A stretch of 60,115 nt of DNA, filler included, from Dugesia japonica (taxonomy: Eukaryota), in assembly GCA_001938525.1 (NCBI GenBank). It is 6 parts of 6 records of this genome, joined end to end, with 100 filler letters (N's around TTAATTAATTAA, not from the genome) between each part and the next. Parts side by side here need not be neighbours in the genome. Positions count along the whole stretch, not along the records: positions 51,316 to 60,115 come from MQRL01536308.1; 5 more parts are not named here. The stretch is one strand, 5' to 3'. Positions 4,420 through 60,115 of the stretch are shown piece by piece (within the stretch, counting starts at the first letter, position 1; the number at the start of each line of letters is the position of its first letter). Under the pieces are notes generated by a model, which saw nothing but the letters and a program-made list of their open reading frames with translations, made no database searches and was not told the origin of the DNA. The position numbers were made by a program, and so were the translations under genes.

Positions 4420-4422
4420 TAT

Positions 4423-4650: not shown

Positions 4651-4654
4651 TCAA

Positions 4655-8767: not shown

Positions 8768-8867
8768 NNNNNNNNNNNNNNNNNNNNNNNNNNNNNNNNN
8801 NNNNNNNNNNNTTAATTAATTAANNNNNNNNNNNNNNNNNNNNNNNNNNNNNNNNNNNNNNNNNNNN
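8768..8867. other. Artificial contig linker (N44-TTAATTAATTAA-N44)
   Basis: 100-bp spacer with stops in all six frames. Identical copies at 19088-19187, 29088-29187, 42071-42170 and 51216-51315. Confidence 0.95.
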
Positions 8868-12151: not shown

Positions 12152-12940
12152 CACGTGAGGACAATCCACCTGCCCCTGGTAGTTTATCCTCCGGATAAAC
12201 AATTTCACCAGTTTCTGGCAGTTTATACCCTTGATAAACTTTTACTGTCCATTAATAATTAATTTATCTTGCTTTACCTATACATTGGAACAATTCCGCC
12301 CGTTCCTGGCAATTTATCGCTCAAAGACAATTTTTCCCAATTGACGATTACTTCAATTCGACTCCTTTGCTCACGTTGGGACAATCCCACCTGTCCCTGG
12401 TAATTTATCCTCCGGATAAACTTTTAATGTCAATTAACACTTCTTTTGTTTCAACTCCTTTTCCACATGGAAACATTTTCGCCTGTTCCTGGCAGTTTAT
12501 ACCCCTGATAAACTTTTAATATCCCTTTACATTTGCTGCATCCTAACTTCATTTTCACGTGGGAACACTTTCGCCGGTCCCTATCAGTTTATACCCTTGA
12601 TAAACTTTCACTGCTAATCAATGATTAAACTATCTCCACTTTAAATTGTCCCTTTGTAGAACTATTTACTCAATTTCGTCACGGTTCATTTTTTTTAAAA
12701 TTATTTCAATTACCAATTTGTTAGCTATACCTTTCCTTTCACCACTTTACATTAGTACCTCTCAACATATACAATGGAACTCTTGTGCCAATTCCTGGTA
12801 AATTTCCTTGCGAAATTTGATAAGTTCAAAGCTCTCCCATAATAAATATCAATAAACTTCTCCTCAACTTATTCATTTTAACTATACACTCGGATAGTTT
12901 TCATTACTTCTCCAAATTTAACTATACACTTGGATAGTTT
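12152..12940 (-). repeat. Degenerate ~92-bp tandem array, each unit with a short stem-loop
   Basis: Units start near 12152, 12206, 12281, 12372, 12464 and 12556 (CACGTGGGAACA..CCTGG(C/T)AGTTTAT-N5-7-ATAAACT). Related hairpins at 12800-12818, 12880-12899 and 12920-12939. Confidence 0.8.
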
Positions 12941-18105: not shown

Positions 18106-21100
18106 TGTCTATAAGAAAAATATTAACAATTATTTGAATTTCCGTCATTTATTTTAAACATATTCTTAAGTAACGAATTGAAAATAAGCTGCAATTAAAA
18201 CATCAACGTATCTTTGGCCTGCGGCCTATAGTCTCTGGTTCCACCGCCTCTATAGTACGAACCAGAGAAGATGTCCACCAAAGCAGCCATCTTTCCTAGT
18301 TCCCACTAATTCGAAGCTTTAACAAGAACTCCTTATCAGTCAGTTTCCTAAGAAATGCAAAATACAGGCAAATTGTAATTCCATAATTCTCGATATCTTT
18401 AATTTCTTTTAACGATCCGGGAGTACGAGTTGGCTGGCCGACGGGCACTCGAATTTAGGGATAGATTATACAAGATTTACCATATTAATATTAATGAAAT
18501 AAATATATTTTACTTTTAATTGTTCGGCTTCTTTTTAACTGGCAAAATTATCTTGCAAAACTTGATATATAATAGTAGCAATTATAACTTTTTCACAAAA
18601 TTTGATATATAATAGTAACGAATTCTAATTGAAAAATTTTTAATCACAAAATTATATGGTAATTTTTCTGACCAATTTTTCAGTGCAAACGAGTTTTATT
18701 TCTCGTTTGCACCCCAACTTGGAATTGGTTATTTGCTTACCAATNGTAGTCGTTTTTCGTCTAATCCGGATTTCTGATTGGTTGTTGTGTTGTTGTGCAT
18801 CTTTTCATTTTCATCTCAGTGAGAGATTGTGCACACAAACTTTATTTACTTCAAAATTATTCAGCAGGTCACCTCATATGACCTCTGAATAATCGGATGT
18901 TAATGTTACTAAGTCCTGGTTTAGCGCGAAATGATTCAGCTAATCTGTTGATGATTTTTCTTCAGCTAAACAAGGCATGATGACTGGACCAGACTTAATT
19001 AAATATAATATTATAATATTAAACGCTATACAGCGTTATTATAATAATGAAATTGGGTCGCAGAGACCTCTTTAATAACTTATTATANNNNNNNNNNNNN
19101 NNNNNNNNNNNNNNNNNNNNNNNNNNNNNNNTTAATTAATTAANNNNNNNNNNNNNNNNNNNNNNNNNNNNNNNNNNNNNNNNNNNNAAAAATGTCAATT
19201 TTAATACGTTCTTTAATTAATTTGTCAGATTTTTGAATTAAATGCAAAAACATGTTTAGGAAAATTAAAAAAATATTTAACTCTTTTAATGAATGCAATG
19301 CAAATTATATTTATTTTTTGATCAATTTACCGCTTACATCAGTTCAAATTCTCTAATGTCATTACTGTAGAATTTCATGATGTACTGATATTTAGAAAAC
19401 ATTATACCATTGAATTATTTTCATTTACATTTTTTATAATTCTATTTATNNNNNNNNNNNNNNNNNNNNNNNNNNNNNNNNNNNNNNNNNNNNNNNNNNN
19501 NNNNNNGTTCCTATAATAAAAAATATATCAATTTTATTAAATAACTATAATAATTTTTAACTGAAAATTACTTCACTTTTATTCATAATCTATTTTCACA
19601 TCATATTTATTACCACGCTTTTGTTTAAATGTGTCACATTTATTGATTTTATTAAAATTGATATTATACTACCTTTTTTACGTTTCATATTGATTTGTAA
19701 TATAATAATCTAATGAATATAAGTAAGAATTTCATAATTGCAAAAGATTTGTTTTAAATTATAAAAAATTAAAAATATTTTCAAAAAATACGAAAATAAA
19801 CTGAGGCTTAAATCAAAAAACAAGGTTTCAAAAAAATGTTTTTTTTTAAAATTTTTATTAAAGCTACAAAAACTTTTTCAAATAAACTTTATTGTTATAA
19901 ACGATTATTGTTACTTGATTTGAATTGTGTTAGATGAGTCTACAATGCTCACTGTGGAATTTNNNNNNNNNNNNNNNNNNNNNNNNNNNNNNNNNNNNNN
20001 NNNNNNNNNNNNNNNNNNNNNNNNNNNNNNNNNNNNNNNNNNNNNNNNNNNAATTTGAGATCCAGCTTTAATCTTAAAAGTTTTTTTTTATTATTTATTA
20101 ATTTCAAACTTTATCTTATTTTACTTAATTTATTTGAAAATAATTTCATATTTTTAAAATTAAATTTCGTTTTAATATATAAAATTCAAATCTCAAAAAA
20201 TTTGACTGTTCAATAATTATTTTCTTACAGTTTGTATCGTGTGTAAAACTTCATATATTGTTGGAACTTAATCAATTAAACGAACATGAGATGTGGAGTT
20301 ACAGATTTCAATAAATTTGTATTTGTTCTATAATAATCCAGCATTTCATTTATGATAAATTCGATATAAAAAAAACATCAATTCAGAAATAACTGCATTT
20401 ATTAATTTTTATTTCAATGTTTTTTTCAAATAACAATAAATTTATTAATAATTATAATTAAATTATAAATTCAAACTAAATTTTTATATTTTGTATCAAA
20501 TAATTTTTCGTTAAAATATGAAATATTGCTTATTAAATTAAAACAATACACATTGTTAGTTTTAAACATTAAAATATTTGCTAGACTTTCCGTGGCGACT
20601 TTTCCATTAACGAGCATTTAGTTTTTATAGTGACAATCTCGTATAGAAGAATCAATAAATAATATTTAATTTAATAATAACAATTTGAATGAAAACAATA
20701 TAATTATAAATTAAAATAATTATGATTATAATCTATTTTTTCTAAGCTTTATCTTGCTCTCCAAAAATATATAAAAGTTCCTTTAGTCATAAAAAGGATT
20801 AATCTTAGTTCAAAATTTCAAAAAGTGCAAGTATGCAATCACAGCAAGCACACAATAAAAACAAATAATGAAATATATTTTTCAAACATTTAAATTTTAT
20901 TTTAATTATTTATTATTTAGTTTTTGTTTGACAATAACAATTATTGCGAGAATAATTGTTTGGCGTAACCATTGATCGTTTTTTTTGGACGAAGACAAAG
21001 TCAAAAATCAGAATTATCAAAAAAAAAATTTTATTCGAAGTTTTTATTTTTTACTTAATTATTTATCATTTATTTGTTGTAAATTTCATTTTTTTAAAAT

Positions 21101-29087: not shown

Positions 29088-29187
29088 NNNNNNNNNNNNN
29101 NNNNNNNNNNNNNNNNNNNNNNNNNNNNNNNTTAATTAATTAANNNNNNNNNNNNNNNNNNNNNNNNNNNNNNNNNNNNNNNNNNNN

Positions 29188-32379: not shown

Positions 32380-35040
32380 AACTTCTCCTCTTGCTAGAAT
32401 CAGCATCTCTTTAATCATTCGATTATTCTAAATCTGGAACCTTATGGAATTTCTAACTTAACTTAGTGAGGTGTTAGAAATTCAGTAATTTTATAAGGAC
32501 TTTCATCGAGTAAATCATTCTTCTTTCGTTTTAGAAGGTCTTTCCTTACTAGCACGACTTCACCTATTTCGAATTCGCGACTAACACAGTTATTTTCTTG
32601 ATTTATCATTGTCTGCGATGCTCGTTTAATATTATCGTAAGTTTGTTTAAAATTTCATCCTNNNNNNNNNNNNNNNNNNNNNNNNNNNNNNNNNNNNNNN
32701 NNNNNNNNNNNNNNNNNNNNNNNNNNNNNNNNNNNNNNNNNNNNNNNNNNNNNNNNNNNNNNNNNNNNNNNNNNNNNNNNNNNNNNNNNNNNNNNNNNNN
32801 NNNNNNNNNNNNNNNNNNNNNNNNNNNNNNNNNNNNNNNNNNNNNNNNNNNNATTAAGCTTATCCATTAGATTTATGTTCATATGGAAATGTAAAGATCC
32901 ATGAAATATTAAGCTTGCTAGCTAGATTTTGTAATAATTTCACTTCAAATACTTTACCACGGCCTGACACGATTTTCTGTTGTTTTCCAAATTTATAAAT
33001 CCAGTGGTTTAATACAGTGCCTTTTACAGCGGTTTCATTTTGGTTGTTGTAGCAAGATTAATCATTTTACTAAATTGATGAATGATAACAATCATATATC
33101 TTTTATTTGATCGACCAATATCCATATATGCTTTATCAATAACGATTTGTTTCACAGGATTACTAATTTTGCTATACTATATTTAAACTCAAAATCATAT
33201 TCTGCCAATTCAGTATCCAGGTTTGAAATTGTTGCGTAAACAGTTTATGTGAATGCTTAATAAATTCCAAGGCCTTGTGATCGGTTCGTGCTACAAATCT
33301 TTTCCCAAATAAATAATGACGAAAATGCCAGATGAATTCATATAACGCCAGTAATTCTTTACAAAAATAAAAATTCACTTTGATATAGTTTACATTTATT
33401 TGGATTGATTTTGAGACCAGAATTCTGGATTCTTTGAAATACATTTTCAATTATTTTATTATGTTCTGATCCACATTTTGCAAATATTAAAATGTCGTCA
33501 ATATATACAGCTACACTTTTAAATAAAATCCCATCCAAAATTGTTTGCAATAATTTCTGAAATGTAGCTGGATCAGTTGAGGACCCAAATGCATATGATT
33601 GCAGCAATATTGTCCATTCTTTTTTGAAATGCTGTTTTAATCTTATTATCTTCGTTTAATTCTACTTGATAATGAGCTTATCCCGCATCCAAAGATGAAA
33701 ATATTGTACAATTACAAAGGTGATCAAACAAAGTTTGTGGATCTGGCATCGACAATGAAAACATTTTTGTAGAATTATCCAACGTTCTAAAGTCTTGGCA
33801 CATTCTGATCGCGCAATTTTTTTTACCTACAATTATCATCGGAAAATTTCAAGCACTTCTGCATTCTTTGATGATATTGCTTTCCATCAGTTGCTCAATC
33901 AATCCATCAATCTTCTGTTCAAGATGTATTGGTTGACGTCGAGGTTGTTNNNNNNNNNNNNNNNNNNNNNNNNNNNNNNNNNNNNNNNNNNNNNNNNNNN
34001 NNNNNAAGTATCTGCTATAAATATATTTGAAAACTTTAGAAGCATTTCTTTTAAATCATTGTTCTCGGTTTAAAAACTGCTAATGCTGCCTTAAAACTAT
34101 CATTTTCAGTAAATTTGCTGTTAATGTTCTCTGAATCCAAAATATTAACGCATTTTTAATTAAATATTTAATGTATTAAACATATCAATTCCACCAATAA
34201 ATTTTGGATTTATTCCATCAACAATCACAATGTAAATAATTCTCTTCACATTTCTAAATTCTATTTTAATTTTTCCAATTTTTGAACAATTCGCTGCTTC
34301 TTTTAAAAATGCACCACTAAATTTAATATTGCATCTATCCAAGGGGAAACATCCACACTCTCTTCATAACTTTGTATGCATCCCTGATATTGAAGCACCT
34401 GTATCTCACAACATTTTGACCATTTTACTTCTAACTTTGACCATACTCCAAATTCATATATCATTCTTCTCATACATATCACAATTCCAATTTCAGTTTT
34501 TATTGTATTGACTCCACCGACGAAACTAAAACAATGGAGTCTCTTTCGTTTAAATAGCTAACATCTTTATTTCTTTCATCCACATTATCATCTTCTTCTG
34601 AAATGCATTTCACGCAATTATTGTTGTGATATATCTGATTTTTGAATAATCACTAGTTTCTTCAGCTGTGACCCATTTTACCACAAATTAGGCAACATGA
34701 TTTAAGAGGATAGTTATTACGTATGTGACCCATAAGACCACAGCAAAGACATAAGCCTTTTTTTAATTTTGTGGAGGGAGCTCTTTTGATCTATTGTACA
34801 ATTTCCTTGTAATAAACTTCATGGAAACTGTTGGCATATTTTTATATTGACATTATCTGTTGTTTTTGGAATCATTTAATTCTTCAGCAATTGGAATTAA
34901 TCTTTCAATTTCATTATTCCTGGGTTTATGATAGCTAGAACCTTTTAAATCAATTTTCTTAATTTTTGGTCTGTAACCTGCTGCTGCCACTTTTGAGTAA
35001 GTTAGCTTATTTATCCGTGACTTACCAAAAATTTCATCAG
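32380..35040 (-). mobile_element. Decayed, internally deleted Ty3/Gypsy element (NC, PR, RT, RH, IN pieces)
   Basis: Minus-strand order: CLCCGLMGH and CLICGKMGH knuckles (~34750), ML*DTGAS (~34400), VYIDD (33359..33607), ELLA..RTDHKAL (33172..33450), and a purine tract AAGAGGAGAAG near 32385. Confidence 0.85.
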
Positions 35041-35279: not shown

Positions 35280-37050
35280 TACAATGCATTGCAAGACAGA
35301 CCATGCGTTACGGTATCAATACAAGAGCATAACTTTGGATGTCTTTTAGATAGAAGAGCTGAAATTAACGTTATTAGTTTCATTTGTTTTACTAAATTAT
35401 GAGAAATACATTTAGAAATGAGCAAACAAATTTTGAGGTATGGAAACATTTGCACACTTGAAATTATTGGGAAAGTTGGAACTGGAGTGACAATTGATGA
35501 AGTTTGAAAAGAGTTTATTTTCTTAGGGCAGAAAGAGTGGCACCAGATCTGACTTGTAGAAGACTTTTTGATATCAGCTTTTATGAAATGTGTACAATAA
35601 AACTGATGAAAAAGTTGACAATTTCATTTTTAATATTGAAGCTAAATCTAGGAGACAAATTAAAAATGAGAGCAATAAATAGTCTTAAGATTAAAGACGA
35701 TCAAAGGCTAATGAAAATGGTAAAAAATATTAAAAGATATTTTCATAGCAGATAAATGAGATTTAAGACGTACAAATATAACAAAACACAAGATAGTTAC
35801 AAGTGATGAATCGTTCCACGTAAACTCATAAAAACAACCAATGAACTTAGAAGTTAAAATTGAAGAGGGCATCCAAAACATGTTTGAGAGTAATATTATC
35901 CAGAAAACGACACACTGCGGAATACTCTACTAATTTGTGTTTGGAAAAAGAACAAAAAGAACATAAATATATGCCTGAATTTCAGACAATGGAATACAGA
36001 AACAAAAAAACGCTTTTCAAATGCCTAACGTTGATTAAATACTGGTTAAATTTATAATGATTTATTAAAATATCTCAACTCGTTTAATTTGGAAAATTCT
36101 TATTATCAAGTAAAACTTGTAGAGAAATCCAAAAAAGGGTTTTCAACGAAGCACGGGAAATTTGTTTTTCATAGGAATACTATTTGGCATAATAGTAACA
36201 CCGGATGCATTTCATGAGATGATAGCAAAAGTGGTAGGCGGTTTAAATGAAAACATGGTATATCTAGATGACAGTCTCGTATTTACTAACAAAAAAGATC
36301 AATACTATAAAGTAATTAATAAAGTATTAACCGAATGATAGAATTTTGATTAAGAGCAACCCTGGAAAGTGTCAGTTTCATCAACGCAAAGTTAAAGTTT
36401 TTGGACAAATAATTAGCAGAGATGGTGCTCAAACTTATCTATCGAAAATAGAAGCAATGAGAACATTTGGCAAACCTAACTACGTCACAAAGCTACAAAG
36501 ATTCTAAGGAATTTATAATTACTATAAAAAGTAGAAAGTTTATAGAAAACTGCACCAAAAAATTAGGGATCTTAGAACAGTTGTATAGAGGATCAAATAA
36601 TGAGAAATTAGAATGCACAGATAAAATAAACTATATTTTTGAGGGTACGAAGGAAGCTTTAATTCTGCTCCAATATTATATTTCCAGATATAAAGAGAGT
36701 TTAAACTAGACATGGACTCCAATTTTGAGTCGACCGGAGTAGCACTGCCACAGAGAGATTAAGAATGAAGAGAAAAGTTATTGCCTATGATTCTCATTCA
36801 GTNNNNNNNNNNNNNNNNTTGGCTGTTTACTATTTCTGCATGCATTTCAAGCATTACTTACTCAGTAGAATATCCACTCTTAGGACACATCATAAAGCTC
36901 TTACTTTCATAATGATGACGATGATACCAATAATTTCACAATTCCAGACATGGATTAATTATCTGAATAACTTGAATATGGTCTAAGAATATTAAAAATC
37001 AATTCAACATGTGAAATTGTGTACGATATCATATGTACTTTAAAAATACC
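35280..37050 (+). mobile_element. Decayed Ty3/Gypsy pol (PR, RT, RNase H), same family as 4655-6608
   Basis: CLLDRRAEINVIS (protease-like) and MVYLDD; the RNase H tract HFKHYLL..RTHHKAL..PIISQFQTWINYL matches the one at 5146-5622. Confidence 0.8.
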
Positions 37051-42070: not shown

Positions 42071-42278
42071 NNNNNNNNNNNNNNNNNNNNNNNNNNNNNN
42101 NNNNNNNNNNNNNNTTAATTAATTAANNNNNNNNNNNNNNNNNNNNNNNNNNNNNNNNNNNNNNNNNNNNAACTTTATGCAAGGTTCACACTCGTACACC
42201 TTTAATTCGCGTTCTTTGCTTTCTCTATTTCACAGTCAATTAATAAATCGTTAAAAATAATTTATATTTTATAATATA

Positions 42279-42641
42279 CTACATGAGATCCATAACATCT
42301 GGGTCTAACCACTGGGTGGGATCGTCAGCTAAAAAATTAAACGACGCTTCGTCGTCCTGGTCATTTCATTGTACCCAGGACGCATTACCAAGCTGGCGAG
42401 ATAAATCTGCAATATATCTCTTCAAAATATCGATTTTTTTCTGAAGAAGCTGTTTCGTCTGCTCGGCTAGATCTCCCTGCTTCTAAACGATGAGGTCTAG
42501 TCTTTTTATGAGTCTATTACGTTGTGCGAGATATTTGAGTAGAGCCCGTTCAGTTTGTCGTTTGAGGTAACGTTCTAGTAACAACTTAGTGATTAGTCGA
42601 TGACAACGACGTAGACTTGTCGGAAATCTAATTTGTGGCAT
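42279..42641 (-). pseudogene. LTR gene D (120 aa basic helical protein with acidic tail), two internal stops
   Basis: MPQIRFPTSLRRCHRLITKLLLERYLKRQTERALL..KIDILKRYIADL..DEASFNFLADDPTQWLD; homolog at 46759-47114. Confidence 0.75.
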
Positions 42642-42766
42642 TAAATAAGATTTATCATTAAATAAGTTAATCTCTTATAAGAGGTGATAATTAGCTAAGT
42701 AAATAATTTGAAAAGAAGAATTTAATTACACAAAGGAAAATCATTTATTTATAAAACCGAGAAAAA

Positions 42767-43121
42767 TTAAGGCCATGATGTCTGAATACCCTTATCTATC
42801 ATTAAATGTTCGAGGGGCATCGCAGTTTTTACTTTCAAAATTTCCTGGACCAGTTTATTCTCACGGTCTTGGTAGGACCGAATAATCTCTGTGAAAAATT
42901 CTATTTGAGCCTTCCACACTCTCTCTTGGGTGTGAGATGCTTTGGCTTTGGATTTGAACGCCATGCACTTATTTTTGTATCGCTTCACCTTACTATTGGC
43001 GTTCGCATTATCAGCTTCCCAGCGACGTTTAGCGAGCTTGTAAACGTCACAGGTCATCTCTAAGTCCCCAATGGACTCGCGGACTCTCTTGGGGCAGCTG
43101 CGCTATAAAAGGAGGAATACA
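42767..43121 (-). CDS. LTR gene C, coiled-coil protein (main ORF 42767..43057; 5' extension frameshifted)
   Basis: 47/82 aa identical to 47283..47531 by manual count; acceptor TTCTAG|TG at 43122/43121; AATAAA just downstream. Confidence 0.75.
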
Positions 43122-43360
43122 CTAGAATATAGAACATTAAACGAAATCTACGAAAACTAGATAAAAGAAGTGGCGAAGTGCACAAAACACCTACTCACAT
43201 ACGGTGATATTCATTCGAAACTCACTAATCATCAAATATACTTTTTCTTTTAACGAAAATTAATTTAACTGAGAAATAAAATTGAACTAAACGGATTTAT
43301 TATTAAACCTTAAAAAACTATTTATTCAGATTATAGTGAGACCATAAATGACATCGACTA

Positions 43361-43708
43361 TTACTGGTCGGTCTCCATGTTGACTATTGGTTCTATAATT
43401 TCCGAAATTTCTGCACCCGTGGGTTCTCTAATACCCCAGAGCAAGTTCGTAATAAAAGCTTGTACTGCTGGGGGCGGGACTGAATGTTGATAGCGGAATG
43501 GAGTTACGTGATTATGCACCGGTCCATTCCAATTCTGGTAATACTGTCGTTCCCCAAAATTCTGGATCCGTGCTACCATAATCTCTACTGGAGGTAGATT
43601 AGACTGGTCCAAAAGAATGCCCGCGTCTCGATTGTACGGGTTTATATGTCGTCGAAAAATCATACGACGTGTTCGTCGGTCGTTAACTCTTTCCCATACA
43701 AATTTCAT
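43361..43708 (-). CDS. LTR gene B, 115 aa, unknown function
   Basis: Intact ORF; DxRT..IFxR..NPYxRxAGxLxD and PP....AFI...LWxIR are conserved in 47777-48208. Confidence 0.75.
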   Translation of the reverse strand: MKFVWERVNDRRTRRMIFRRHINPYNRDAGILLDQSNLPPVEIMVARIQNFGERQYYQNWNGPVHNHVTPFRYQHSVPPPAVQAFITNLLWGIREPTGAEISEIIEPIVNMETDQ

Positions 43709-43865
43709 TAAATTTATTTGGTTCAGTAATAAATTGAAATTATAATCAATTTTAGCAATTTACTGACTAAGTTATTAAATGTGTGCTGTAAAAGAATTCA
43801 AAACTTTTAATCAAGACGTGTAATTTATATTTAACCTATATCAAAGATAAAACCAGATACGTCAG

Positions 43866-44051
43866 TCAATCTTCACTGTCTATATCGACAATACAACACA
43901 ATGGAAATAATTCGGCGAAGCATTGAAGATCCAGCTCATCAGGTGTAGGGACACAATCTGGGAAGAGAAGATGTGCGATTAACTGTTTTCGACGTATCCG
44001 CTTACGTTCTTGGCGAATAACGGTTAATGCGTTGGTTAAGATGTTTGACAT
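43866..44051 (-). CDS. LTR gene A, 61 aa, unknown function
   Basis: IR..RK..R.KQL.AH.L and PxExDxxCFxExFP....VDxDxE are conserved in 48372-48579; ATG 4 nt after TTCAG. Confidence 0.7.
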   Translation of the reverse strand: MSNILTNALTVIRQERKRIRRKQLIAHLLFPDCVPTPDELDLQCFAELFPLCCIVDIDSED

Positions 44052-46758: not shown

Positions 46759-47114
46759 TTAAACCGACGGCCCCTGATCAAGCCATTCGGAGGATTCATC
46801 GTCCATCAAATCAAATGCGGCCTCATCAACTTCAATGGCCAGTGCGCCCATTGCTCAATCTCTAGGCGAGTAGCTAGATCGGCGATATATTGTTTGAGGA
46901 AAGCGATTTTATTGATGAGAATCTTTTGAGCGCGCTTAATTTAACTCTTCTTCTTTCTTAACGATCAAACCAAGCCTTTTAATTAACCGATCACATTGCG
47001 TCAAGTGATGGAGCAAAGCGCGTTTAGTTTGCCGTTTTAGATGGCATTCCAGCAGGAGTTTCTGGATAAGTCTATGGGATCTGCGCAGACTAGTAGGGAA
47101 CCGAATACGTGGCA
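46759..47114 (-). pseudogene. LTR gene D, second copy (frameshifted)
   Basis: TTTCAG|TG-PRIRFPTSLRRSHRLIQKLLLECHLKRQTKRALL..KIAFLKQYIADL..DEAAFDLMDDESSEWLD; AATAAA near 46750. Confidence 0.75.
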
Positions 47115-47240
47115 CTGAAATAAAGAACGATAATTATCGTTGAAAAATGAAACAAAATTAACTTCAAAATAAATAAGACAACTAGAAAAAACACAGTTAA
47201 ATTAAGATAAAAAGCTTTTATTTACAAATCAACGGTGAAG

Positions 47241-47599
47241 TCACTGTCGTGAGGTTTGGATGCCTTTGTTGACCATCAAAGGTTAGAGGGGTATGGTCTT
47301 TCTTAGCAGCAAAATATCAGATATCAGTTTATTCTCACGGTCATGGAGGGACTGGGTGACTTCGGTGAAGGACTCAACCTGCGCTTTCCATACTCTCTCC
47401 TGCTCATTAGAGGTTTTGATCTCTTTCCGAAAATCAATATACTTTGCCTTGTATCTTTTTACCTTTGCGTCAGCATTAGCTACATCAGTCTCCCTTCTGC
47501 GTTTTGCAAGGCGATAGGGATCCCAGGTCATGTCCTGGTCCTCATTGGCCTCGCGTACTTTCTAAGTTGGAGCTGTGGAACGATTTAGAGAAGAATGCA
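47241..47599 (-). pseudogene. LTR gene C, second copy (two internal stops)
   Basis: TTACAG|TG-HSSLNRSTAPT*KVRE..MTWDPYRLAKRR..IPL*PLMVNKGIQTS. Confidence 0.75.
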
Positions 47600-47776
47600 C
47601 TGTAAATAATATCATCAAAAAACACCTGAACCTTAACGACTTATACTGTATGATAACTATGACAGAATGATTATTGCATTATAATTACTATAGAAGCCGA
47701 AAATATTACAAGTAAAACATAAATAAAACACAGGTACACGAAGTTAGTATTCTCTATTAAGCAATTTAGAAAATCA

Positions 47777-48208
47777 TTAGGTGGCAGATTCATTGTCTCC
47801 AATAACGTTAGAATTTTCGCAGCTTTCACCTTCCTCTTCGTTACGGATGTTCCAAAGATTGTCATGTATGAAGGCTGTTAAGTTCCAGGGAGGAGAAATA
47901 TGTGTGGCCGTGACACCTACAACTGATGGGCCTTCGTGCCAAGAACGAGTAATATGCAGTTCACCACTTGAGTCTAACTGGGTAGATAGGGTCGAATAAT
48001 ATACGGCGCGCCTACGGTCGGGGCCACTTAAAGCTTAGTATGCCTGTCGCTCACATGCGTCATATTCTCTCTCTTCTTCTGCAATCTCAACTGACACGTT
48101 CGCTCGATCTACCAGAACCCCGGCATTTCGATCATATGGGTTTTTGTACCTTTTGAAAATAGTACTTTTGGTTCTCTTATCCAATAAAACCTCTCATTTA
48201 TGCTCCAT
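47777..48208 (-). pseudogene. LTR gene B, second copy
   Basis: AACAG|AA-MEHK*EVLLDKRTKSTIFKRYKNPYDRNAGVLVD..HISPPWNLTAFIHDNLWNIR. Confidence 0.72.
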
Positions 48209-48371
48209 TTCTGTTAATGTTAAAATCATAATATTACTAAATAAAACGAAAAAGTATTTTTATTTAAAGATGTAGGAATCCATTAACGCTACTGAATTAG
48301 CATTTATTTTGCTACAATAAAATAAAACAATGAATTTTAATGATCAAAAATTGTCGCATAGGTTTATTGGC

Positions 48372-48579
48372 TTAGATATACAGAGGAATTATCAGGAACC
48401 ATTCTTCCTCATCCAAGTCAACTTGATATTTCGAAGGAAACATCTCGGTGAAACACTTTATGTCGGTTTCGTATGGATGTTCAACCTTACCCCGGGACAA
48501 AATGTGTGCTAATAATTGTTTTAGTCGAGTCGACTTACGCTGCTTTCGGATCAGACGTCTTTCTTAATTCGATTTGCAT
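48372..48579 (-). pseudogene. LTR gene A, second copy (frameshift near start)
   Basis: TTTAG|GAT-MQIELRKT/LIRKQRKSTRLKQLLAHILSRGKVEHPYETDIKCFTEMFPSKYQVDLDEE; AATAAA at 48363-48368. Confidence 0.7.
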
Positions 48580-49347: not shown

Positions 49348-51315
49348 TCGTTATTCCATTTTAATCAGATTGAGACTATTACTTGTTGACGGCACTCGTG
49401 TTGTTACCGATCCTGCTGGCGATGTTAAGTGTATTTAACTATGACTCGGTAGGTGTGCATCGCTATGACGCGGATGGAGAGAAAAAGTATCAACACCCCA
49501 TTTGGAGTAATGAATTTTAATATGACACATCTCTTGCTTGGAATCTATCAGTTACAAAATGAAAATCGATTTTAGACTAATTATATCTAGTGTTTAATTT
49601 CATTAATGTGGAATTTTCTTTATTAATGTTGTGATGCGGAATTAGACATTACCGAAAAAATTTCTATTGGCGTGGATGTATCATGGAATTATTAAATGGA
49701 ATTTGATATATCTGCAGTAGCATCTCTGCCTGGAACTCAGTTTTTTGCAGAATTTAATCGAATGGTTATTCATTGGTTATTACTAAATTATTATACTCAT
49801 TTCGTTATCTTTTTTCTAAAATTATTAACGGTGTAAATGTGATGGAATTTAATGTAACATACATTATTAATTTCACGATTTCTCATTTGAGCGGCTACCA
49901 ACTAATGTATCGATAAGTTGCATAAGAAATAATTTCATAAAATAAAATTTGTTTCTTTCCTATAATTGTCATTCATTAAAATTAAACATAAATTGATCTG
50001 AATTAAGGAAATATATTTATTGCATTTAAAATTCGTATCACAAAATAATTAACATCAAAATTACATTTTAAGTGTCTAGTTCAAGGTTCCTGTAACGGGA
50101 TTGTCGTAAAATTCAGCTTCTTGTTTTTCTGAATTAGCAATTTAAATTACGTTCCGCAAAAGTGTTATCGAGGTTTATTCTTGCTTTATCGATGATTATC
50201 CAACTAGTGATACGAGCTTTCCAACTTTTTAAGCTAAAATTTTCTTCCAAATTAAATTTTGTTATTTCCAGCAGTACAATGAAATTTTCTTTTTATAGAG
50301 TTTTCTGACCACGAGAATTAAATTAGTACCGTAATGGCATACCTATAATTTTTTTCTAAATTATAAGGGTTTATATACCCTTTTTCGATGCATCTCGACA
50401 CCATCGTCATTGGTTTCTATTTTTAATTTATGTTTTCTTGTTTTTATTGGTGATGGTGCCAATTCTTAGATTTTTTCTACGATTCTTTCATCTACCATTG
50501 GTGCCTATTTTTAGGGTACCATGTAGTTTTCTTGTCTTTGTCTTATTTTCTTTTTCTGGCTCCTTATTGGCCCACTCTTTAAATCCTTGTAGGGGTCTTC
50601 CTGATTGTGATAAGATTTTTTTATTGCAAAATCCTATTGCCCCTTGACATTTTCTTTCCAGATTTTCTCTTATTGATTCTTATGAGGGGAGTTATTCCCG
50701 AATAACTGATTTTGGCTTAATTTTAATTTATTTTCTCGATGAAATTAATTAATATTCCTTTATTAATTAATTATTATTTTCTTGATTATTTTTTTTTAAT
50801 AATCATAATTTTCTTAATTAATCGCGTGATTTGACCAATATTCAGTCATCTGATGCGTTCATTCTGCATTTTATCTTTTCTACTCGTCTTCCGTATTGAG
50901 GTAATTTTTTTATTGCATTTATTATGTTTAAACAAAGAATTACCAATGAAAACATGTTAATAACATAAAATAACACATTTTTAACCAATAAAATAAATAT
51001 ATACAAAGTTTACTTATCAAAACCTAGTATAAAAACGAATACGTGTAATAAACTTTCATTACTTTACTATGCAAAAACCTATTACTGTAACAAAAGATAC
51101 TGTTATGTCTATTATAGTAGATTACGGAAAACCTACTGAACTTCATGGAATACAAATGAAATTCTTTAAGAGATCAATAATTTATACGTTTCAGGTACTT
51201 TAGTTTTTTAATTTTNNNNNNNNNNNNNNNNNNNNNNNNNNNNNNNNNNNNNNNNNNNNTTAATTAATTAANNNNNNNNNNNNNNNNNNNNNNNNNNNNN
51301 NNNNNNNNNNNNNNN

Positions 51316-52750
51316 ATGTATGATATTGGCCGAGAATAAAGATTTTAACGGATTGAAAAAAGATCAAGATGAGGACGAAGAAGTGAAAAAATTCTTAGAA
51401 TATATATCTCACTTTGATTTTAGTAAAGTAGAGTGTAACAAAGCGATGAAGGAACATTGAAAGAAACGAGGCGGTAGATACACAGTGGTGAACGAATGAT
51501 TAATGATGTAGGAAGGTGATCAACTGTTATTGGTAATACCAAAATGTAGAAAAGCAAAAATACTGGAACAGTATCATAATGGAGTTCTCGGAGGTCATAT
51601 GTCAGCAAAGAAAACGGTATCAAAATTACGAGCAAAATATTATTGGCCTCATATTACAACATTTGTGAGAGAATGGATTAGTAAATGCGAAATTTGTGCG
51701 GCCAGAAAAGGAACTGGAAAGAAAATTAAAGTTCCGTTACAACCGATACCAGTGCCAGCGGCACCAATGGATATAATTGCAAAGGACATAATCGGACCAT
51801 TGCCACCAACGGACAGTGGAAAGGTATATATTTTGACAGTAGTGGATTATTTATCCAAATTTCCCGAGGCTTTTGCATTAAAAGATCAGAAAGCGTCGAC
51901 CATTGCTAGAGTATTAGTCGATAAACTATTCAGTCGATACGGCCCACCTAAAAAGATATTGACAGATCAAGGAAAGAATTTCATGAGTTAATTAATGAAA
52001 GAAGTGACTAGTTATTTTAATATTCATAAAGTGCGGACATTGGCGTATCATCCATAAACGGATAGGATGACAGAGCGATTTAATCAGACATTGACTAGAA
52101 TGTTATCGAGTTACGCGACCAGATCCCATAGAGATTGGGATAAGCATTTGAATTTATGTTTATTTGCATATAGAATGGGAGAACATCCCGCAACAAAAGC
52201 TTCACCTTTTAAACTAATGTACGGCCGAGAATGTTATATGCCAATAGATTTGGAGCATCAGCCACCGATATCGCAGTACATGGATGAGGATGATTACGTT
52301 ACCGGCATGAAAGAGATAATGCAAGAAATATGGAGATTGGCAGCATTAAATGCAAAATTTAATCAAGAGAGTTATAAGGAATTGTATGATCGAGATACAA
52401 AACCCCATATGTTCAAAAAGGGTGATATGGTATTAATTAATACACCAACAATCGAAATTAGAACCACGGAGAAATTAAAACGACCAAACAGAGGACCATA
52501 TTTAGTTTTAGAGACAACTGCAACAAATCTAAAAGTAAAGGAAGTGGGAAAACCACTTAAAAAGCCAAGTATTGTTCATGTATCGAGATGCAAACTAGCA
52601 GCAATCGAGGACGACAATGATAAAGAAAGCGATGAGGAGACTGTGGAAAGAGTGAGGCGAGTCTCAGTCAAACCAAAAATGGAGGATAAAGAGAAGGAGG
52701 TTAAACAAAAGTTGAAAAAGACAAAAAGAGTTAGTTTTAAAACGAGATAA
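51316..52750 (+). pseudogene. Ty3/Gypsy integrase (H2C2 zinc domain, DDE core, GPY/F module) with in-frame stops
   Basis: YHNGVLGGH..CEIC; KDIIGPLP..VVDYLSKF..ILTDQG..YHP*TDRMTERFN; GPYLV. Confidence 0.95.
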
Positions 52751-55700
52751 ATTGATGAGGAGAGTCGATATCCGATTAGATCCAGACAACAAATAATGAT
52801 GATGAACACGAAAACCAGCAAAACTAAAAGTAATATGGCTGAAATTCAAGAGGAGGAAAGTGTTAAACAAGAAGAGCGGTGTATATTTTGTAAGGCGACA
52901 AAACCAGATTCGGTACCATTAAACAAAGAGCTAATAGGAAAATCATGTTATCATTGCTTGTGAGGTATGTGTGATGATGTAGCAGAGTTAGTGGAGAATT
53001 TGAGTCGCGAATCTTCCCAGGAGGGAAGAGAAAAGTTTATCATGAACAAATTATCATGCGAATTATGTGGTCAGACATCAGTAAAATTACCAAGTGTCAC
53101 AAGTGAATACCAACAGTGGTGCTGAAGTTGTTTGAGCTTCGCACAAAGAATTTCTACGACAGAGATTAGGTGTATACATAAACACATGCAAGGGTTGACA
53201 GCCGCAAATCCTATTCAACAGAATATAGAACCAGCGTTGAATGAGATTGTGCAACAATATGAGGTAGATAATAATTTGGATATCTTTGAGAATGGCAGTG
53301 CCATGATGAGACAATATTACTCGTCTATAACGGAAGGAGTGACTCAAGGGAGTCGAACATGTAGTAATTCACAATGCGGACAGTCCGTCGAGAGAGGATG
53401 TCGCTTGAGTAATCTGGAAAAGCAGATATACGAGCCGTGTCTGTTGGTGATTCAAATAGTTACCAGAAAAAAGCAAGATCGGTGGATCTTAAACAGGAGC
53501 ATTAACGCTGAGAAAAACCTCAGGACTGTGGACGTCAAATCGAGTACTTTTAATTTGGAGAAGTTAGTCGTGCGATGCAAAATATGTTACAGTATCAGTC
53601 CTGTTGCAGTACCCTTGGATAAGATGCTCATGAGTAAAGCATGTTTCCAATGTTTACAATCGACTTATGACAACTTAACGTTGATGGAGAAGGGTGTCAG
53701 TCGAGAGTCAAAACGAGCGGATAGAGAGGGACGCAAGGATCCCCCATGTGAGCAGTGTAATGCAATATCGTGCAATATAAAAATAGACGCAGGACTATTC
53801 AAATAGTGGTGTAATCACTGTTTACGAAAGGTTAAAGAAATTATTAACCTTGAATTGGAGTGTGTACATGTACATAGGAGAGGATCGACAGCAGCCAACC
53901 CCATTAGGCAGTACATAGAATTAACTCATGAGGAAATTCTACAAAAATTTCAATTAAATGATCAATTAAATATTTATGAAAATAGACGAGATATGCTTAA
54001 TCAATATTATTCTTCAGTGACAGACGACTGGAAGAAAGGGAATCGAAAATGCGACAATCCGAGATGCGGAAGATATAACCTCAAAGGATTTATTCCCCAA
54101 AGCGGATGGAGACCATTATGCCAACCATGTCTGAGCGGTGTTCAGATAGTTACGACGAAGAATCAGGAGTATTGGATCTACAAGAATCAGCCGACATTTA
54201 AGGAAAACGACGAGATCGAACCAACAGTATGCGATAAATGTAGAGCATGGAGGCCTACCAGATGCCTAATCATTGTGACGGATATCATGAAGTTATGTAA
54301 ACAATGTTACCAAAGTGCGAAAAGTAGTGTTAAACGATCATTATTACAAGTCAAACGCAGAGGCCAATAGTTATTGGAAACGGGAGTGTGAGATAGTGCA
54401 GGTTGTGTCAGTTGTGTGAATGAAAAAGTCCAAGTGAAGTTGCCAGTACTGGAAACGGTATACAAAGAATTGTGTTTGGAATGCGCAATCGATATGCGTG
54501 GTCAATTGCAAGATGCAAAAAATGTGTTACATGGGGCCAAAAAACAGTTAAAGCTAAGCCAAACCACGCCAGTTAAAGGAGAACCTTTGACATCAATAGT
54601 ACGGAAGGAACGGTGGAGTGGGACTAAGAGTCAGATGCGAGGGATCGACGAGGACGTCGATTTTTTAAACAGGGGGAGTGATTGGTCTGAATTGTTGTTC
54701 AATGAGCGAATACGACGAATACACGAAGAATTAATTGATAAAAAACAAATAATGAAAGAGATGAGAGAGAGCAATAGTACATACTATGCTTTAAAGAAAC
54801 AGAACTTCCAATTAACGATATCAGAGGAGGATAAACGAACAATAAAAAATACGTGGGAAGCCTACAGCAAGCGCCAAGAAGAATACGAAGGACAAATAAA
54901 TAAAGAGGAATATAAAGCAGCGCAAGCCAAGCGGATGGCAGAGACGCAACAATTTATAAAAGAAAATGAAGGGCGAGGAAACCCTGATGTGGAACAATTA
55001 AAAAATGCGGTACAGTGGGTACAAACATTCGAACAAGTGGTGGAGAAATTAGAAAAAGATAAACAAGAGATTCAACAAAAAGCGGAGAAGCAACAAGAAN
55101 NNNNNNNNNNNNNNNNNNNNNNNNNNNNNNNNNNNNNNNNNNNNNNNNNGGAGAAATTAGAAAAAGATAAACAAGAGATTCAACAAAAAGCGGAGAAGCA
55201 ACAAGAAACGTTGGAGAGATTAAATAAAAAGAAAGCCCAAATGATAGAATCTCGTTCATGTCTGACGCAGAAACTAAATGTAATACAGAAAAACAACAAT
55301 GAACTGAAAAATTGGCCTAGTACATCGAACAAAAGTGAAAATCGTAGAAAGAGGGATAGAAAGAATAAAAATAAAAAATGGCAAGTTCGAAGCGCTACTA
55401 TGGAAATTGTGTATTCTTATTCAGATAACGATAATAGTGAAAAGGGTCACGATGCGCCAGAGGAAGTAATAAAAAGTGAATTTAGTGGACAACCGCCGCC
55501 GGCGGATGATGATGAGTCAACCAACTTCAGTAAATTAAAGGACGATTTATGGCACCAGTTGTTGACAAAGCGAGTAAAGTGCGAAGCAGAGAATAGTCAG
55601 AGAATCAAAACGGAAGGGGACGAAATATTTACTGCAGAAGCAATAGAAATGATACGAGCACACCAGGTAGGTGAAGAGGACATGCCAGCAGCAGTACTAG

Positions 55701-56962
55701 GAAAAGTTGAAGCTTATGGAGAAAGGTGTTACCAAAGATGGGTCCAAGAAAACAAGGAGGAGAGGAAGTCCAAAGGGCCGTTAGTAAATAAAGAGGAACA
55801 AAAATTTAAAGAAAAAGGAAAACCTGAAGAACCAGAACATAAAAATGAGACGAAGCCCGAAAAACAACCAATGGCGGAAGCGGAGCGAAAATTAAAGGAG
55901 GAAAACAAGGGAATAGAAACTGCAATACTATTAACGGTAGAAACAGTATTATGTCGTAAAAAGGATTTACCGAAAGATGAAGAGTTGGAGATGCAAGCAT
56001 ATTATCAATGTATAAGACGCAAATGGTGCGCTGATCGGCCAGGAGAAAAGGTCCCCACCATAAGAGATGGAGATAAGATGACGAGATGCCCGACAGATCA
56101 AGAATTTCATGTGTATCATGAACAGGAATATAAAAGAGAGTATGGTGAGTTACACAGCAAACTAGAGGAATATTTAAAAATTGAGGAATCGTACAACGNN
56201 NNNNNNNNNNNNNNNNNNNNNNNNNNNNNNNNNNNNNNNNNNNNNNNNAAAAGAGAGTATGGTGAGTTACACAGCAAACTAGAGGAATATTTAAAAATTG
56301 AGGAATCGTACAACGGAAAATCGCTTACCAAACAAGAGTGCGAAGAACGATTAAGAAGAAGTGAAGATATGGTTATCGAGTATCAGAGAAAAGCAGAAAT
56401 CTATCCACATCCAATGTTATTAGAGGAAAGTAAAGCGATGGAAAAATTATACCGTAAAGCACTAGACCGGAGAGCAAAACAAGAACAAAAACGGGATTTG
56501 AGCAAGCACCAAGGTCAAGTGGAGATGTTGAAAAGAGTACGGAGCAAACAAGTGGAAAAAAGGGATGGATTCATGAAACCAGAAACGGAAACGAAAACGT
56601 TAAAGGAAGCAGAAACGTTGAACTTTTGTGGGATTCTTGAGAGAGACACAAAAGATAATGAACAAGTCGAGGACAAGATAGTAGTAATTGGAATGATAGA
56701 CCTCAAGGGTAATGTCCTGTTTGAGATGCCTTTTACACCTGAGCTAATGGAAGAGATAAGAGCAGCTCAAGATAAACAAAAAACGCAGAAGTTTGAACCG
56801 GTAAGGTACGAGTGTGTGCTGAAAAGTAACGGGCAAGTAATAGAACAAGAAATTAACTTAATAAAGGATTAAGCAACAATTAAAGAACCGAGTCCAGGAA
56901 CTCCATTACCAGAACTACCCACGGTTGAAAATGATACGTCAGAAGGAAATTATGTATACGCG
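52751..56962 (+). pseudogene. In-frame post-integrase extension: ~2.5 tandem Cys-rich modules, then a long charged/coiled-coil region
   Basis: ORFs 51530, 52067, 53132, 53855, 54416 and 56963 all lie in one frame, separated only by isolated stops. TAANPI..QYYSS..C....CG..PCL..QIVT..WI recurs about 240 codons apart. Confidence 0.8.
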
Positions 56963-58935
56963 ATGACTAAATCCGAATCACAGGATCACATTTACGAAAA
57001 TGAGTCGGGAGATCTAAAGGTGGAAACAAAGCCGTCCGTTCTAAGAAATTTTCGGAAGACAATGTGGGCATGCTTAGCATTGATACCGGTGTCAATAGTT
57101 ATTTTTTTATTAGTAACGCTAACGGCGGTAGCATGGCCAACAACGGTACAAATGACAAATTTGTATGAGTTTAACGAGTCAACCACGATGTCTAGTGGGG
57201 CAAATAGACAAACCAAGCTAATGAGTAAATGGATATATGTCCTAATGGCGTTGGTTGCATACGAAGTGATAGGACTGGAGCGAGATTGGCCAACCAGACC
57301 AACCATTGTCGTAAGTCAGACGACTAATGATAATCGGAAACTGTTAATGATAATAACAGTAATAATGGCGTTAGCATTTGCAGTGACAATCGTAATCTTA
57401 GTAATGACAGTGAATAGACAAGCGCAACTACAGCTTGAATTTCAGCCTGACTTCGAGATTCAGAGGAACGGGAGCCCATTAACAATTCAATGGAACAAGT
57501 GGATGTATATAGTATTATTACTAATTGGGTTCAAAGTGTTAAGTGGAGAAGAGTGTACTGATTATGAGGATATTCATACGGAACATCGAATCTATATGAC
57601 TTACTATAAAACTTGGGAAACACACGACCTCTAGAATCATTGATAAAAACAAAACATCAATCGATTAAAGTGGATCTCTATAGATTCGCTTGGTCGCTAG
57701 ATATCAAGATCAAAGGTAGTAAGAAAGAGCAAGTTCGAATTGTCCTATACAACCATGAAACGTGGGGTGTTGTGGGGGATGAAGACATAATTCTTGCCTA
57801 CAACCAGAACTCGGGATTGTTCGAAGCCAACAGAGAGTGTAGTTTTTATTACTACCACTATATTCAGGTATTCTATTCTACGCGTGCCTGGTATGAGCCA
57901 GTTTGGCTCAGCTTCCGAGACAAATGTCGGAAGAAACAAGCGGGGTATATCTCGCAAGTCTGGAGAATTGAACCACGAGGAGTAACGGGAATTCAATGGA
58001 ATTAGTTTCCATTAGGTATTTGGAGACAGCATGCCGTCTTCCGAAGAGGAGAGTGGCCTATGATCGACGTGAAAATGAGTATAGTAGATAAAGAGAATCC
58101 AAGGACACCCCAAGATGCAGAAGTTACGTTCCAAGTAGCGCGTAGAAAATAATGGTTGTTTCGGATTAAGCAATATCGATCTTTAACATATTGGACGCAA
58201 GACGGGATGTTACAAGAGTATAAATGGAAACGTAATCAAAGCGAAATGATAATGAAACTTAATCGAAAAAATGGAGAGTGGTTAGAATTAGAATATATAT
58301 TAATTGACGAGGCATCCCAGGACAACAAGGCATTAACTGCCAAACCGACGACGAAAGGGAGGACAAAAACAAAAACTTCCTTAAAAACAACAGCGGCTAG
58401 GTCATCAACTGAGAGGTCGACAACCAGGGTGTATCCAAAGACGACAACGCCGGCGACAAAAACTATCATGAAGAGAAACACGAGAGAAACCAGTGTACGA
58501 AGCAAAAGGAGAAACCATGCGATAACGAGGTATGTGAAGACGATAACTGATAGTGAATCAACAAAGAAGCCATCGAATATTTTAAATAAACAACATTTTA
58601 ATGAAAAATTAATGAAAGAGTTGGTAAGGACCGGTTCACGAAGGACATTTCCGGCAAAGGCTAGGTTGAAGCATGAGGCANNNNNNNNNNNNNNNNNNNN
58701 NNNNNNNNNNNNNNNNNNNNNNNNNNNNNNNNNNNNNNNNNNNGCGGGCGTCATTACGATAATCATGATGACGATTATAACGATATTAATTTGTAAAGCG
58801 AAAAGAGGGCAGTATCCTAGACTGCGTTTAGAACCAGAATTAAGAGAGTTGACAGCGAAATATTTCCACCCGCTAAGAGTGTTGGTGTGGTCGAGAGTTC
58901 CTGAGGGAGGAACTGAGTCGTTGTGGAGTTATTGA
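56963..58935 (+). pseudogene. Membrane-protein end of the polyprotein: TM/signal repeats and Env-like type I membrane protein
   Basis: Four hydrophobic segments in 56963..57634, a frameshift near 57620, an aromatic-rich ectodomain, a Thr-rich stalk, RSKRR, TM AGVITIIMMTIITILIC and tail KAKRGQYPRL. Confidence 0.65.
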
Positions 58936-59123
58936 GGAGATTAGGGAGAGCAAAGTTGTAAATAAAGGTACAAAATTTAGTTTTGAAGTGGCTCGAAATG
59001 TAAAGTAGGGCATAGTTAAGTAAATTGAAATTAAAGTACCGTATAATTGAATAAATTTGATTTTGGATCACCATAGTGTTATCGTAGTATTTATTTAGTA
59101 AAATAGAACAAAAACAGATAACA

Positions 59124-59618
59124 ATGAGGGGACGGTTAACAGTAAACGTGGATCTAGACGACGTCGACAGAGCAATTACGGAAGAACCAGCACAAACGTA
59201 TACCCAACTGCTTAATCAACCTTTAAACCCTTATTTTACAATGGAAAACTTGTGGGACGAACACTGCCGGAGTGTAATGAGAAATTCAGATGTACTAAAC
59301 GAACAATTACAACAGACACGACAATTAAATGCAACCCTTGTAGAGAATCAAAATTTTCATGTGATGCAGATACACTGATTGAATAAAATATTGGAGAACC
59401 AGAGACGACAGATTACCGAGAATCAGAATTTTTACCTACAAACCTTGAGCGGAACTAACAAAATTTTAGAAGATCTGAGACACCAAGGGGAGGAGTTACA
59501 AGCCTATAATGCAGAGCTTATCCTATCCCAAATTAACCGATTACCAAGCGTATCTACAATCCTGAACACTATCGAGACTAGTGAGAGGATGTGGTATGGA
59601 GAAGAGAGTAACGTATGA
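59124..59618 (+). pseudogene. Separate ~164-codon coiled-coil accessory ORF downstream of the polyprotein (one internal TGA)
   Basis: ORFs 59124..59378 and 59379..59618 are contiguous and in frame; internal repeat ENQNF......NKILE. Confidence 0.6.
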
Positions 59619-60115
59619 CAACGGATGCCAAGATGTACAGTATTGTAAAATATGTGTTAAATAGTAACTGTGTTACTATGCAAAAAAAAAACTTTGTATT
59701 AAAAAAATCAAAAACAGTGCAAGTATCGTATAAGTAGAGTGGCAATAATGTTTATTTAATCAGTGCGTGATCAGAATAATTCCGATGTATATATACAATG
59801 CATGAGTATTTTCGAAAAGTGTGAAGTGTTGATGTAGAGGTGATAATTAGGGAGAAGTCAAAATTAGTATGTAAATGGCCAATGAGGAGTGGCATGTGGT
59901 GTATCCATGAGTGTGATACCCGGTAAATTGTAAATAAATAAAATCAGGATACAGTACAGTAACAGTAGTAAGGAGAACAATATTAAACAATTTGTAAATA
60001 TCAGTCACAATTAAAAATTTGATTAATCAGTAAATTTGTTTTAATCAGTACTCCCAATGTCTTAATGTATAAATATTCCATATTACCTGTATTTTAATTA
60101 AGAGAATGGCATCCA

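Follow-up and report, generated by a model that had tools for sequence, protein, structure and literature searches.

A decayed Ty3/gypsy element of Dugesia japonica with a candidate membrane protein probably in frame behind integrase

The locus and its reading frame

We analyzed a window of 60,115 nucleotides (nt) from the genome of the planarian Dugesia japonica (assembly GCA_001938525.1), made of six parts joined end to end, the last of which (MQRL01536308.1) carries part of a Ty3/gypsy element whose pol reading frame appears to extend far beyond its integrase. The contig begins at 51316, inside pol and behind a gap, so that gag, protease, reverse transcriptase (RT), and the 5' long terminal repeat (LTR) fall outside the window; what is visible is the last 8.8 kb up to the window end. 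From the gap onward the features are the following (aa, amino acids; ORF, open reading frame):

51216..51315, no strand: run of N with a 12-base linker; all sequence upstream of integrase is absent from the contig
51317..52750, +: decayed Ty3/gypsy-type integrase (H2C2, rve core, and GPY/F, then a charged linker), with stops at 51458, 51497, 51509, 51989, 52055, and 52748
52748..52804, +: junction of integrase and tail (copy-specific stop 52748, RYPIRSR, then three Met codons)
52877..53518, +: Cys-rich repeat unit 1, two CxxC-x~18-CxxC pairs and a further Cys-containing module; stops 52961 and 53123
53573..54208, +: Cys-rich repeat unit 2, homologous to unit 1; stop 53804
54230..54484, +: partial third Cys-rich unit, two CxxC-CxxC pairs, with stops 54368 and 54389 in the spacer between the pairs
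54485..56872, +: charged region of about 800 codons (E+K+R+Q 40-42%), stop-free up to 56870, with two 50-N gaps that have duplicated flanks
56873..57607, +: membrane-entry region, four hydrophobic segments by hydropathy, with Tyr motifs at 56951-56993 upstream of them
57608..57634, +: frame change, where both frames overlap
57610..58332, +: predicted ectodomain, orphan, about 240 aa; stops 58003 and 58150
58333..58509, +: Thr/Ser-rich stalk (Thr/Ser 43% over 46 aa), then RSKR at 58498
58744..58935, +: C-terminal transmembrane segment behind a 63-N gap, with basic stop-transfer residues and a short tail with YPRL at 58813; stop 58933
59124..59618, +: coiled-coil-like ORF, separate and downstream, about 164 codons long with stop 59376 inside; part of the same repeat

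A Pfam search with the whole translation recognized the integrase domains alone (H2C2 zinc domain at about 51536-51709, PF17921, E = 9.5e-17; rve core at about 51761-52054, PF00665, E = 8.6e-12). Together with the GPY/F module at 52493, these give the window all three parts of a Ty3/gypsy integrase. Because five stops (51458-52055) sit within the integrase region, this copy is decaying. At the junction, the RYPIRSR motif (about 52766-52786) resembles an RYxLR-type motif of the relatives described below, and the three Met codons (52796-52804) lie just behind it.

The original prediction placed six ORFs in one frame from integrase to 57634 and two more behind a single shift, and the frames bear this out: 51512-51991, 52058-52750, 53126-53806, 53807-54370, 54392-56872, and 56873-57634 share one + frame, and 57610-58005 and 58153-58935 share the next. 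With X read at stops, 13 of the 2,106 codons in the integrase frame are stops (51458, 51497, 51509, 51989, 52055, 52748, 52961, 53123, 53804, 54368, 54389, 56870, and 57632). Between 52751 and 57634 there are 7 stops in 1,628 codons, compared to 145 and 133 in the other + frames and to a mean of 119 and a minimum of 89 in 500 shuffles. The second frame has internal stops at 58003 and 58150 and a terminal stop at 58933 (57610-58935: 442 codons, three of them stops, where shuffles have 29 on average and 16 at the least). The frame had also been described as broken only by point stops. It is indeed far more open than shuffled sequence, but it holds 13 stops rather than the five then named, two more in the second frame, and three N gaps inside the tail (55100-55149, 56199-56248, and 58681-58743). 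The first two gaps are flanked by identical 58- and 67-nt sequence, implying unmerged overlaps rather than rearrangement. From GPY/F to 58932 the tail measures 1,706 + 441 codons, or about 2,070 once 75 gap-artifact codons are subtracted, which upholds the predicted figure of about 2,000. A single gap-free piece (51316-55099) carries integrase, the two Cys-rich units, and the first 236 codons of the coil.

Cys-rich units 1 and 2, about 215 aa each, are 36% identical over 212 aa (score 384; shuffle maximum 57). The third unit is weak (score 63 against a shuffle maximum of 61 with unit 1; 45 against 52 with unit 2). The 13 CxxC motifs across these repeats suggest zinc binding, and the charged region behind them (54485-56872) is probably helical and partly coiled-coil. 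In the membrane-entry region, two strong hydrophobic segments (57074-57130 and 57347-57406) are accompanied by two shorter, signal-like ones (about 57218-57277 and 57503-57559), which align with each other (score 48; shuffle maximum 40). The last signal-like segment ends about 20 codons upstream of the frame change, and in the second frame there is neither a separate signal nor, for 150 codons, a Met (the first stands at 58060). RSKR at 58498 is presumably a furin-type motif. Three Tyr residues stand in acidic context (EGNYVYA, DHIYENE) at 56951-56999, just ahead of the first hydrophobic segment, and would be cytosolic under the topology proposed below; we take these sites to resemble SH2-docking motifs. 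The putative zinc-binding, coiled-coil, furin, and Tyr-motif roles are predicted from motifs, and so is the membrane topology. Single-sequence folds were uninformative for the unit 2 region (a pLDDT, or predicted local distance difference test, score of 35) and for the ectodomain (pLDDT 32).

Searches for homologs of the tail were negative. No homolog was found for residues 480-1100 of the translation among proteins of 1,158-3,686 aa, for the Cys-rich part (52751-54370) among 1.84 billion representatives, or for 53807-54367 among metagenome and viral contigs, and the best score of 53807-54367 in Atlas was 0.89, under the lead threshold. Nor did the tail match any of 78 fetched proteins and 81 loci (see below); the coil, membrane, and ectodomain parts were compared with these two sets and with Pfam. 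Nine tail pieces gave no Pfam match under E = 0.02. No Pfam match to a fusion glycoprotein family of the kind that env-bearing errantiviruses have downstream of pol (F-type or class III) was obtained with the tail, whole or in nine pieces, or to BIR, MATH, BCL2, ankyrin, or SUMO-like domains in the visible tail.

Other copies and relatives

To 51317-60115 we aligned public DNA-type contig runs (X1, X3, X4, and X8). All 30 bins were covered in all four runs, by 11,586 (X1), 5,697, 5,522, and 1,396 contigs, most of them 90-99% alike. The stretch, tail included, is therefore a decayed copy of a high-copy repeat family, dispersed and multicopy as a Ty3/gypsy element should be. No second copy of this DNA lies within the window, where repeat cover continues to the very end; the downstream ORF at 59124-59618 was covered in four of four runs. 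This ORF gave a V-SNARE_C match (E = 2e-4, under the curated cutoff) and contains both of two 11-nt purine runs. A look at expression, over 341 bases only, gave a single read in X17, less than 90% alike, and no read in X18.

Stops fixed across copies would imply separate genes, and three of the three tail stops that could be read are not shared. Stop 58150, the one stop among the 40 of 977 differences listed for 51317-60115, carries another letter in 17,676 of 17,770 depth in X1 and in all depth in X3, X4, and X8. A second alignment, restricted to 52660-53000 and listing all 30 differences at 35% or more, covered two further stops. At the junction stop 52748, another letter that makes no stop stands in 15,227 of 15,233 depth in X1 (31 contigs) and 5,599 of 5,599 in X4 (14 contigs), and stop 52961 has another letter in 3,714 of 3,768 (X1) and 1,280 of 1,326 (X4) depth. 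None of the 28 remaining differences creates an in-frame stop, as judged by eye, and no indel is listed. Stops 52748, 52961, and 58150 are thus private to the window copy. Within the copy itself, stops 53123, 53804, 54368, and 54389 fall inside the internally repeated zinc-type unit, and 53123 and 53804 lie opposite sense codons in the sister unit. As a hint on the frameshift, the alignment of a contig in X4 (depth 372) and of another in X8 starts at 57609 and leaves 27 letters over ahead of that point. Programmed frameshifting at 57610 was considered and set aside, no slippery heptamer being seen by eye.

Searching with the integrase among proteins of 1,158-3,686 aa gave 71 matches, 64 of which are Cordylochernes gene models (33-36% identity) that often join several integrases or other genes and were excluded from the tail-length count. 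Among proteins of 3,687-5,000 aa, only seven matched the integrase, all of them Cordylochernes gene models. The best six other matches are 44-49% identical to the window integrase, and the seventh, P0065, 34%. The six close relatives run 371-498 aa past GPY/F through an RYxLR-like motif, a signal-like hydrophobic stretch (over threshold in five, by eye in P0024), and then an ectodomain followed by a strong anchor. In P0065 the protein stops 103 aa past GPY/F, with no anchor. Integrase-alignment scans added the best 80 of 541 confirmed metagenome stretches and one viral locus (81 loci). L001, the best metagenome match (47% identity), has an intact ORF of at least 2,368 aa. Its part past GPY/F, 1,188 aa long, takes in a second protease-like domain and ankyrin repeats, then a signal-like helix followed by an ectodomain, and last a Thr-rich stretch with an anchor behind it. 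Seven relatives are therefore intact ORFs that run 371-1,188 aa past GPY/F and end in a predicted transmembrane helix. Tail length could be measured in 55 of the 81 loci (24 had no recognizable GPY/F and 2 ran off the contig), giving a median of 49 aa; 50 were at most 150 aa, and the longest after L001 was 266. The original prediction had put the normal end of pol within ~150 aa of GPY/F.

In a quick 30-row tree built from the window, 20 loci (out of 81), and 9 proteins (out of 78), the window and the seven tailed relatives fall on one side of a branch with a Shimodaira-Hasegawa-like approximate likelihood ratio support of 97, or 88 in a smaller tree. The relatives' gene order is protease-RT-RNase H-integrase, as in Ty3/gypsy. 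A class III fusion glycoprotein stands between gag and protease in P0030, P0032, and P0065 (PF24664 in the first two). This fusogen is upstream of protease in two of the seven branch relatives, and the other five sequences start at or near protease. Tails are homologous between P0023 and P0024 and between P0028 and P0030, and a 95-aa two-Cys domain is common to P0023, P0024, P0032, and L001 (six of seven copies beat 200 shuffles in a leave-one-out comparison). The layout is common to the branch, and the cargo differs. By eye the relatives' ectodomain is fibronectin-type-III-like; Pfam, Atlas, and a PDB sequence search gave no support for this (best PDB E = 0.07, treated as chance).

Two side observations concern these relatives. 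L001:3-11517 holds separate ORFs after pol: the first encodes an RNase_T exonuclease (E = 1.5e-11), another looks similar to that one by eye, and a third is weakly ubiquitin-like. Protease domains are duplicated, with two before RT in P0029 and a second behind integrase in L001 and, by eye, in P0030.

Interpretation and alternatives

The private stops and the seven intact relatives support the ancestral ORF that had been predicted, with zinc modules, a coil, and a membrane protein behind integrase, the identities of the modules being putative. We are confident that the integrase was fused to the Cys-rich repeats. Continuity through 56870 and the frameshift is likely, and the whole is probably a decayed Ty3/gypsy copy whose pol frame continued beyond integrase for about 2,000 codons and ended in a predicted type I membrane protein with a cleaved signal. 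The branch is best read as a lineage of Ty3/gypsy in which integrase is followed, in fusion, by a cargo slot and a membrane protein, their cleavage and function being putative. The integrase-fused membrane tail is branch-wide, and the window is probably its longest and least recognizable example.

Several observations weigh against this reading. The private-stop result spans three of the nine internal tail stops, with 53123, 53804, 54368, 54389, 56870, 58003, and the frameshift outside its coverage, and no indel near 57610 is among the 12 of 19 indels listed. Cover is thin at 52804-52850, where the linker varies between copies; copy lengths differ near 56924-56936; and no longest contig bridges the integrase core to repeat unit 1. 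Stops occupy 11 of 89 at-risk codons in 51317-54391 and 0 of 77 in 54392-56869 (P = 0.0009); given this unevenness, the assembled stretch may be a mosaic of copies or have recombined between copies. The tree was quick, midpoint-rooted, and without named references. Against the relatives' tails, the window ectodomain reached E = 0.035 at best (nine-sequence set), and it did not match the 95-aa domain profile. Finally, four hydrophobic segments, an even number, precede the ectodomain, so that simple alternation would not place it outside; one of them must not cross.

Met codons at 56963 and 57062 lie behind stop 56870 and ahead of the first hydrophobic segment. This stop could mark the real end of a gene, in which case pol, with the Cys-rich and coiled part, would finish there and the membrane protein would be a separate env-like ORF3 made from spliced RNA. 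We regard such a two-gene arrangement as unlikely: the membrane protein lies within the integrase ORF in seven of seven clade relatives, and three of three stops read were private. In its favor, 56870 lies outside the stops read in other copies and is the sole stop after 826 open codons, and rotifer LTR elements include some with a separate ORF3 that is usually spliced and has transmembrane segments, according to the accessible part of one study (PMC5408684).

The frame may instead have been continuous with the tail made mostly from its own start (Met 52796-52804) on subgenomic RNA, leaving the integrase fusion incidental. That three Met codons come directly behind RYPIRSR, and that the copy-variable linker comes next, would suit such a start. 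A stop at the junction could then arise freely, yet none is common there, and the fusion has been kept in seven diverged relatives; we give this little credence, noting that an own start is compatible with the fused frame rather than exclusive of it.

High copy number, uneven stop density, and three N gaps, two with identical flanks, could also be the marks of an assembly mosaic, in which pieces of different copies or subfamilies were joined and no single element has the full length or order. However, integrase, both Cys-rich units, and 236 coil codons share the gap-free piece 51316-55099, identical flanks imply overlap and not rearrangement, and the overall order agrees with L001, making a mosaic very improbable. 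Capture of a host gene once, behind a single insertion, had no observation in its favor and is hardly credible, being contradicted by tail cover from thousands of diverged contigs, by the lack of introns in the tail, and by the lack of a Cys-rich homolog among the 1.84 billion representatives.

Under the fused-frame reading, a mechanism can be proposed from the layout and by analogy with Atlas virus. A single polyprotein would be translated from genomic RNA, and the element's aspartic protease would release integrase near the RYPIRSR linker, with the Cys-rich and coiled parts left as cytosolic accessory cargo. Late hydrophobic segments would target the ribosome to the endoplasmic reticulum, where host signal peptidase may free a glycoprotein with an ectodomain, a Thr-rich stalk, an anchor, and a Tyr-motif tail. 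The Pol precursor would thereby be tethered to the membrane and the surface protein supplied in step with Pol; in members with an upstream fusogen, the tail would be the source of a second surface protein. What lies between integrase and membrane protein appears to act as the cargo slot, being short in most relatives, protease-like and ankyrin-bearing in L001, and filled with orphan Cys-rich repeats and coil in the window. Such a slot would be a defined place where retroelements gain new protein domains, and with the window a high-copy family contributes about 2,000 aa of orphan sequence.

A broader proposal is more speculative. The branch might represent a new Ty3/gypsy lineage of complex invertebrate retroviruses whose one polyprotein yields two surface proteins, combining a class III fusogen between gag and protease, a fast-changing glycoprotein behind integrase, and an exchangeable accessory slot. 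Should such a lineage exist, the integrase-fused glycoprotein could tentatively be assigned to attachment or host modulation, and the window family might stand at its extreme, having a multisegment membrane region and, as cargo, about 1,400 aa of new zinc-type and coiled sequence.

The window as a whole is AT-rich (GC 15-42% per kb), and N runs with the 12-base palindromic linker (8768-8867, 19088-19187, 29088-29187, 42071-42170, and 51216-51315) were a source of false repeats in repeat scans. At 8816-11100 (-) lies another retroelement, whose gag has three CCHC knuckles; the broken ORFs behind gag contain an internal repeat, match no family, and run into an N-run join, and 92-nt spaced repeats (12198-12635) lie upstream of the element. 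This element could be the 5' half of a giant element, and no link to the integrase tail is shown. A coding unit with a coiled-coil-like ORF is present in two diverged copies, at 42468-44021 and 46942-48554 (-), which reach at best 57% over 104 aa. A single 266-codon ORF at 2017-2817 (-), apparently without introns, has PH (E = 3.7e-7) and weak SH2 (E = 4.6e-4) matches and was absent from the protein collection by exact look-up. Mutually alike decayed pol fragments of another gypsy family lie at 4400-6542 (+), 32875-33655 (-), and 36192-37031 (+).

Comparison with known systems

Elements of the Burro kind measure over 30 kb in total and have long LTRs. The element Burro, to which the original prediction likened this one, has an ORF of 4,873 aa in which env lies in frame, after gag and before pol; in the accessible text of its description (PMC6431247), env, MATH, SUMO-like, and BCL2 parts stand upstream of protease, and BIR and ankyrin repeats are listed without position. 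Burro/GYPSM1 and the window are alike in having a very long single polyprotein with extra domains, a probable one in the window, and decaying copies with stops and frameshifts, and the window's relatives recall Burro in the fusion glycoprotein between gag and protease (two relatives) and in the ankyrin repeats of L001, whose cargo is Burro-like. The comparison was apt in kind, but in that text the stretch from gag to protease is where env and several of the additional domains lie, and the window tail differs in having no BIR, MATH, BCL2, or ankyrin match. Because the ankyrin repeats of L001 lie behind integrase, Burro may already show such a tail; no Burro sequence was among the integrase matches in the protein, metagenome, and viral searches.

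A survey of env-carrying elements, as far as its text is accessible, describes GAG-ENV-POL errantiviruses in nematodes, bryozoans, and flatworms and names only chromodomains C-terminal to integrase, with no fused membrane protein (PMC13524379). P0030 and P0032 of the window's branch are like these elements in carrying PF24664 between gag and protease. The integrase-fused tail is a candidate for how such env-before-pol elements attach to cells or dock Pol at membranes.

BEL/Pao elements differ from gypsy elements in GPY/F and in their gag, protease, and RNase H models. In the window GPY/F is present and the tail has no env family match, and the relatives have gypsy-type gag, protease, and RNase H models, which separates the window from elements with a BEL/Pao-type pol and a phlebovirus-like or gB-like env. 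The closest working model comes from Belpaoviridae, in which glycoproteins are fused behind pol in one polyprotein, a layout like that of the relatives and the one predicted for the window: Atlas virus has a single 2,828-residue Gag-Pol-Env that ends in one transmembrane helix and is cut by host proteases, its env being phlebovirus-like GN-GC, according to the accessible part of the report (PMC9094657). The window differs in its gypsy-type integrase with GPY/F and in an ectodomain that matches no known fusogen. This polyprotein strategy is known from Belpaoviridae and RNA viruses, and we found no description of it for Ty3/gypsy, or of a membrane protein fused to a Ty3/gypsy integrase, in the searchable literature, outside which lie most subscription journals and Repbase notes; Burro, the GAG-ENV-POL elements, and Atlas virus were nearest, and the accessible portions of PMC11410931, PMC8532177, and PMC13238120 held nothing further on the integrase-fused layout.

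In Metaviridae, env, where present, is a gene downstream of integrase (PMC7879559), and rotifer LTR elements carry separate ORF3s, including DEDDy exonucleases, in the accessible part of their description (PMC5408684), a likeness to the downstream RNase_T exonuclease ORF of L001. The window resembles canonical Metaviridae in having membrane or accessory coding sequence downstream of integrase. There, however, the extra sequence is a separate gene and pol usually ends soon after integrase, whereas in the seven relatives, and probably in the window, it is part of the pol frame, and all eight sampled members of the branch run on into a predicted membrane protein.

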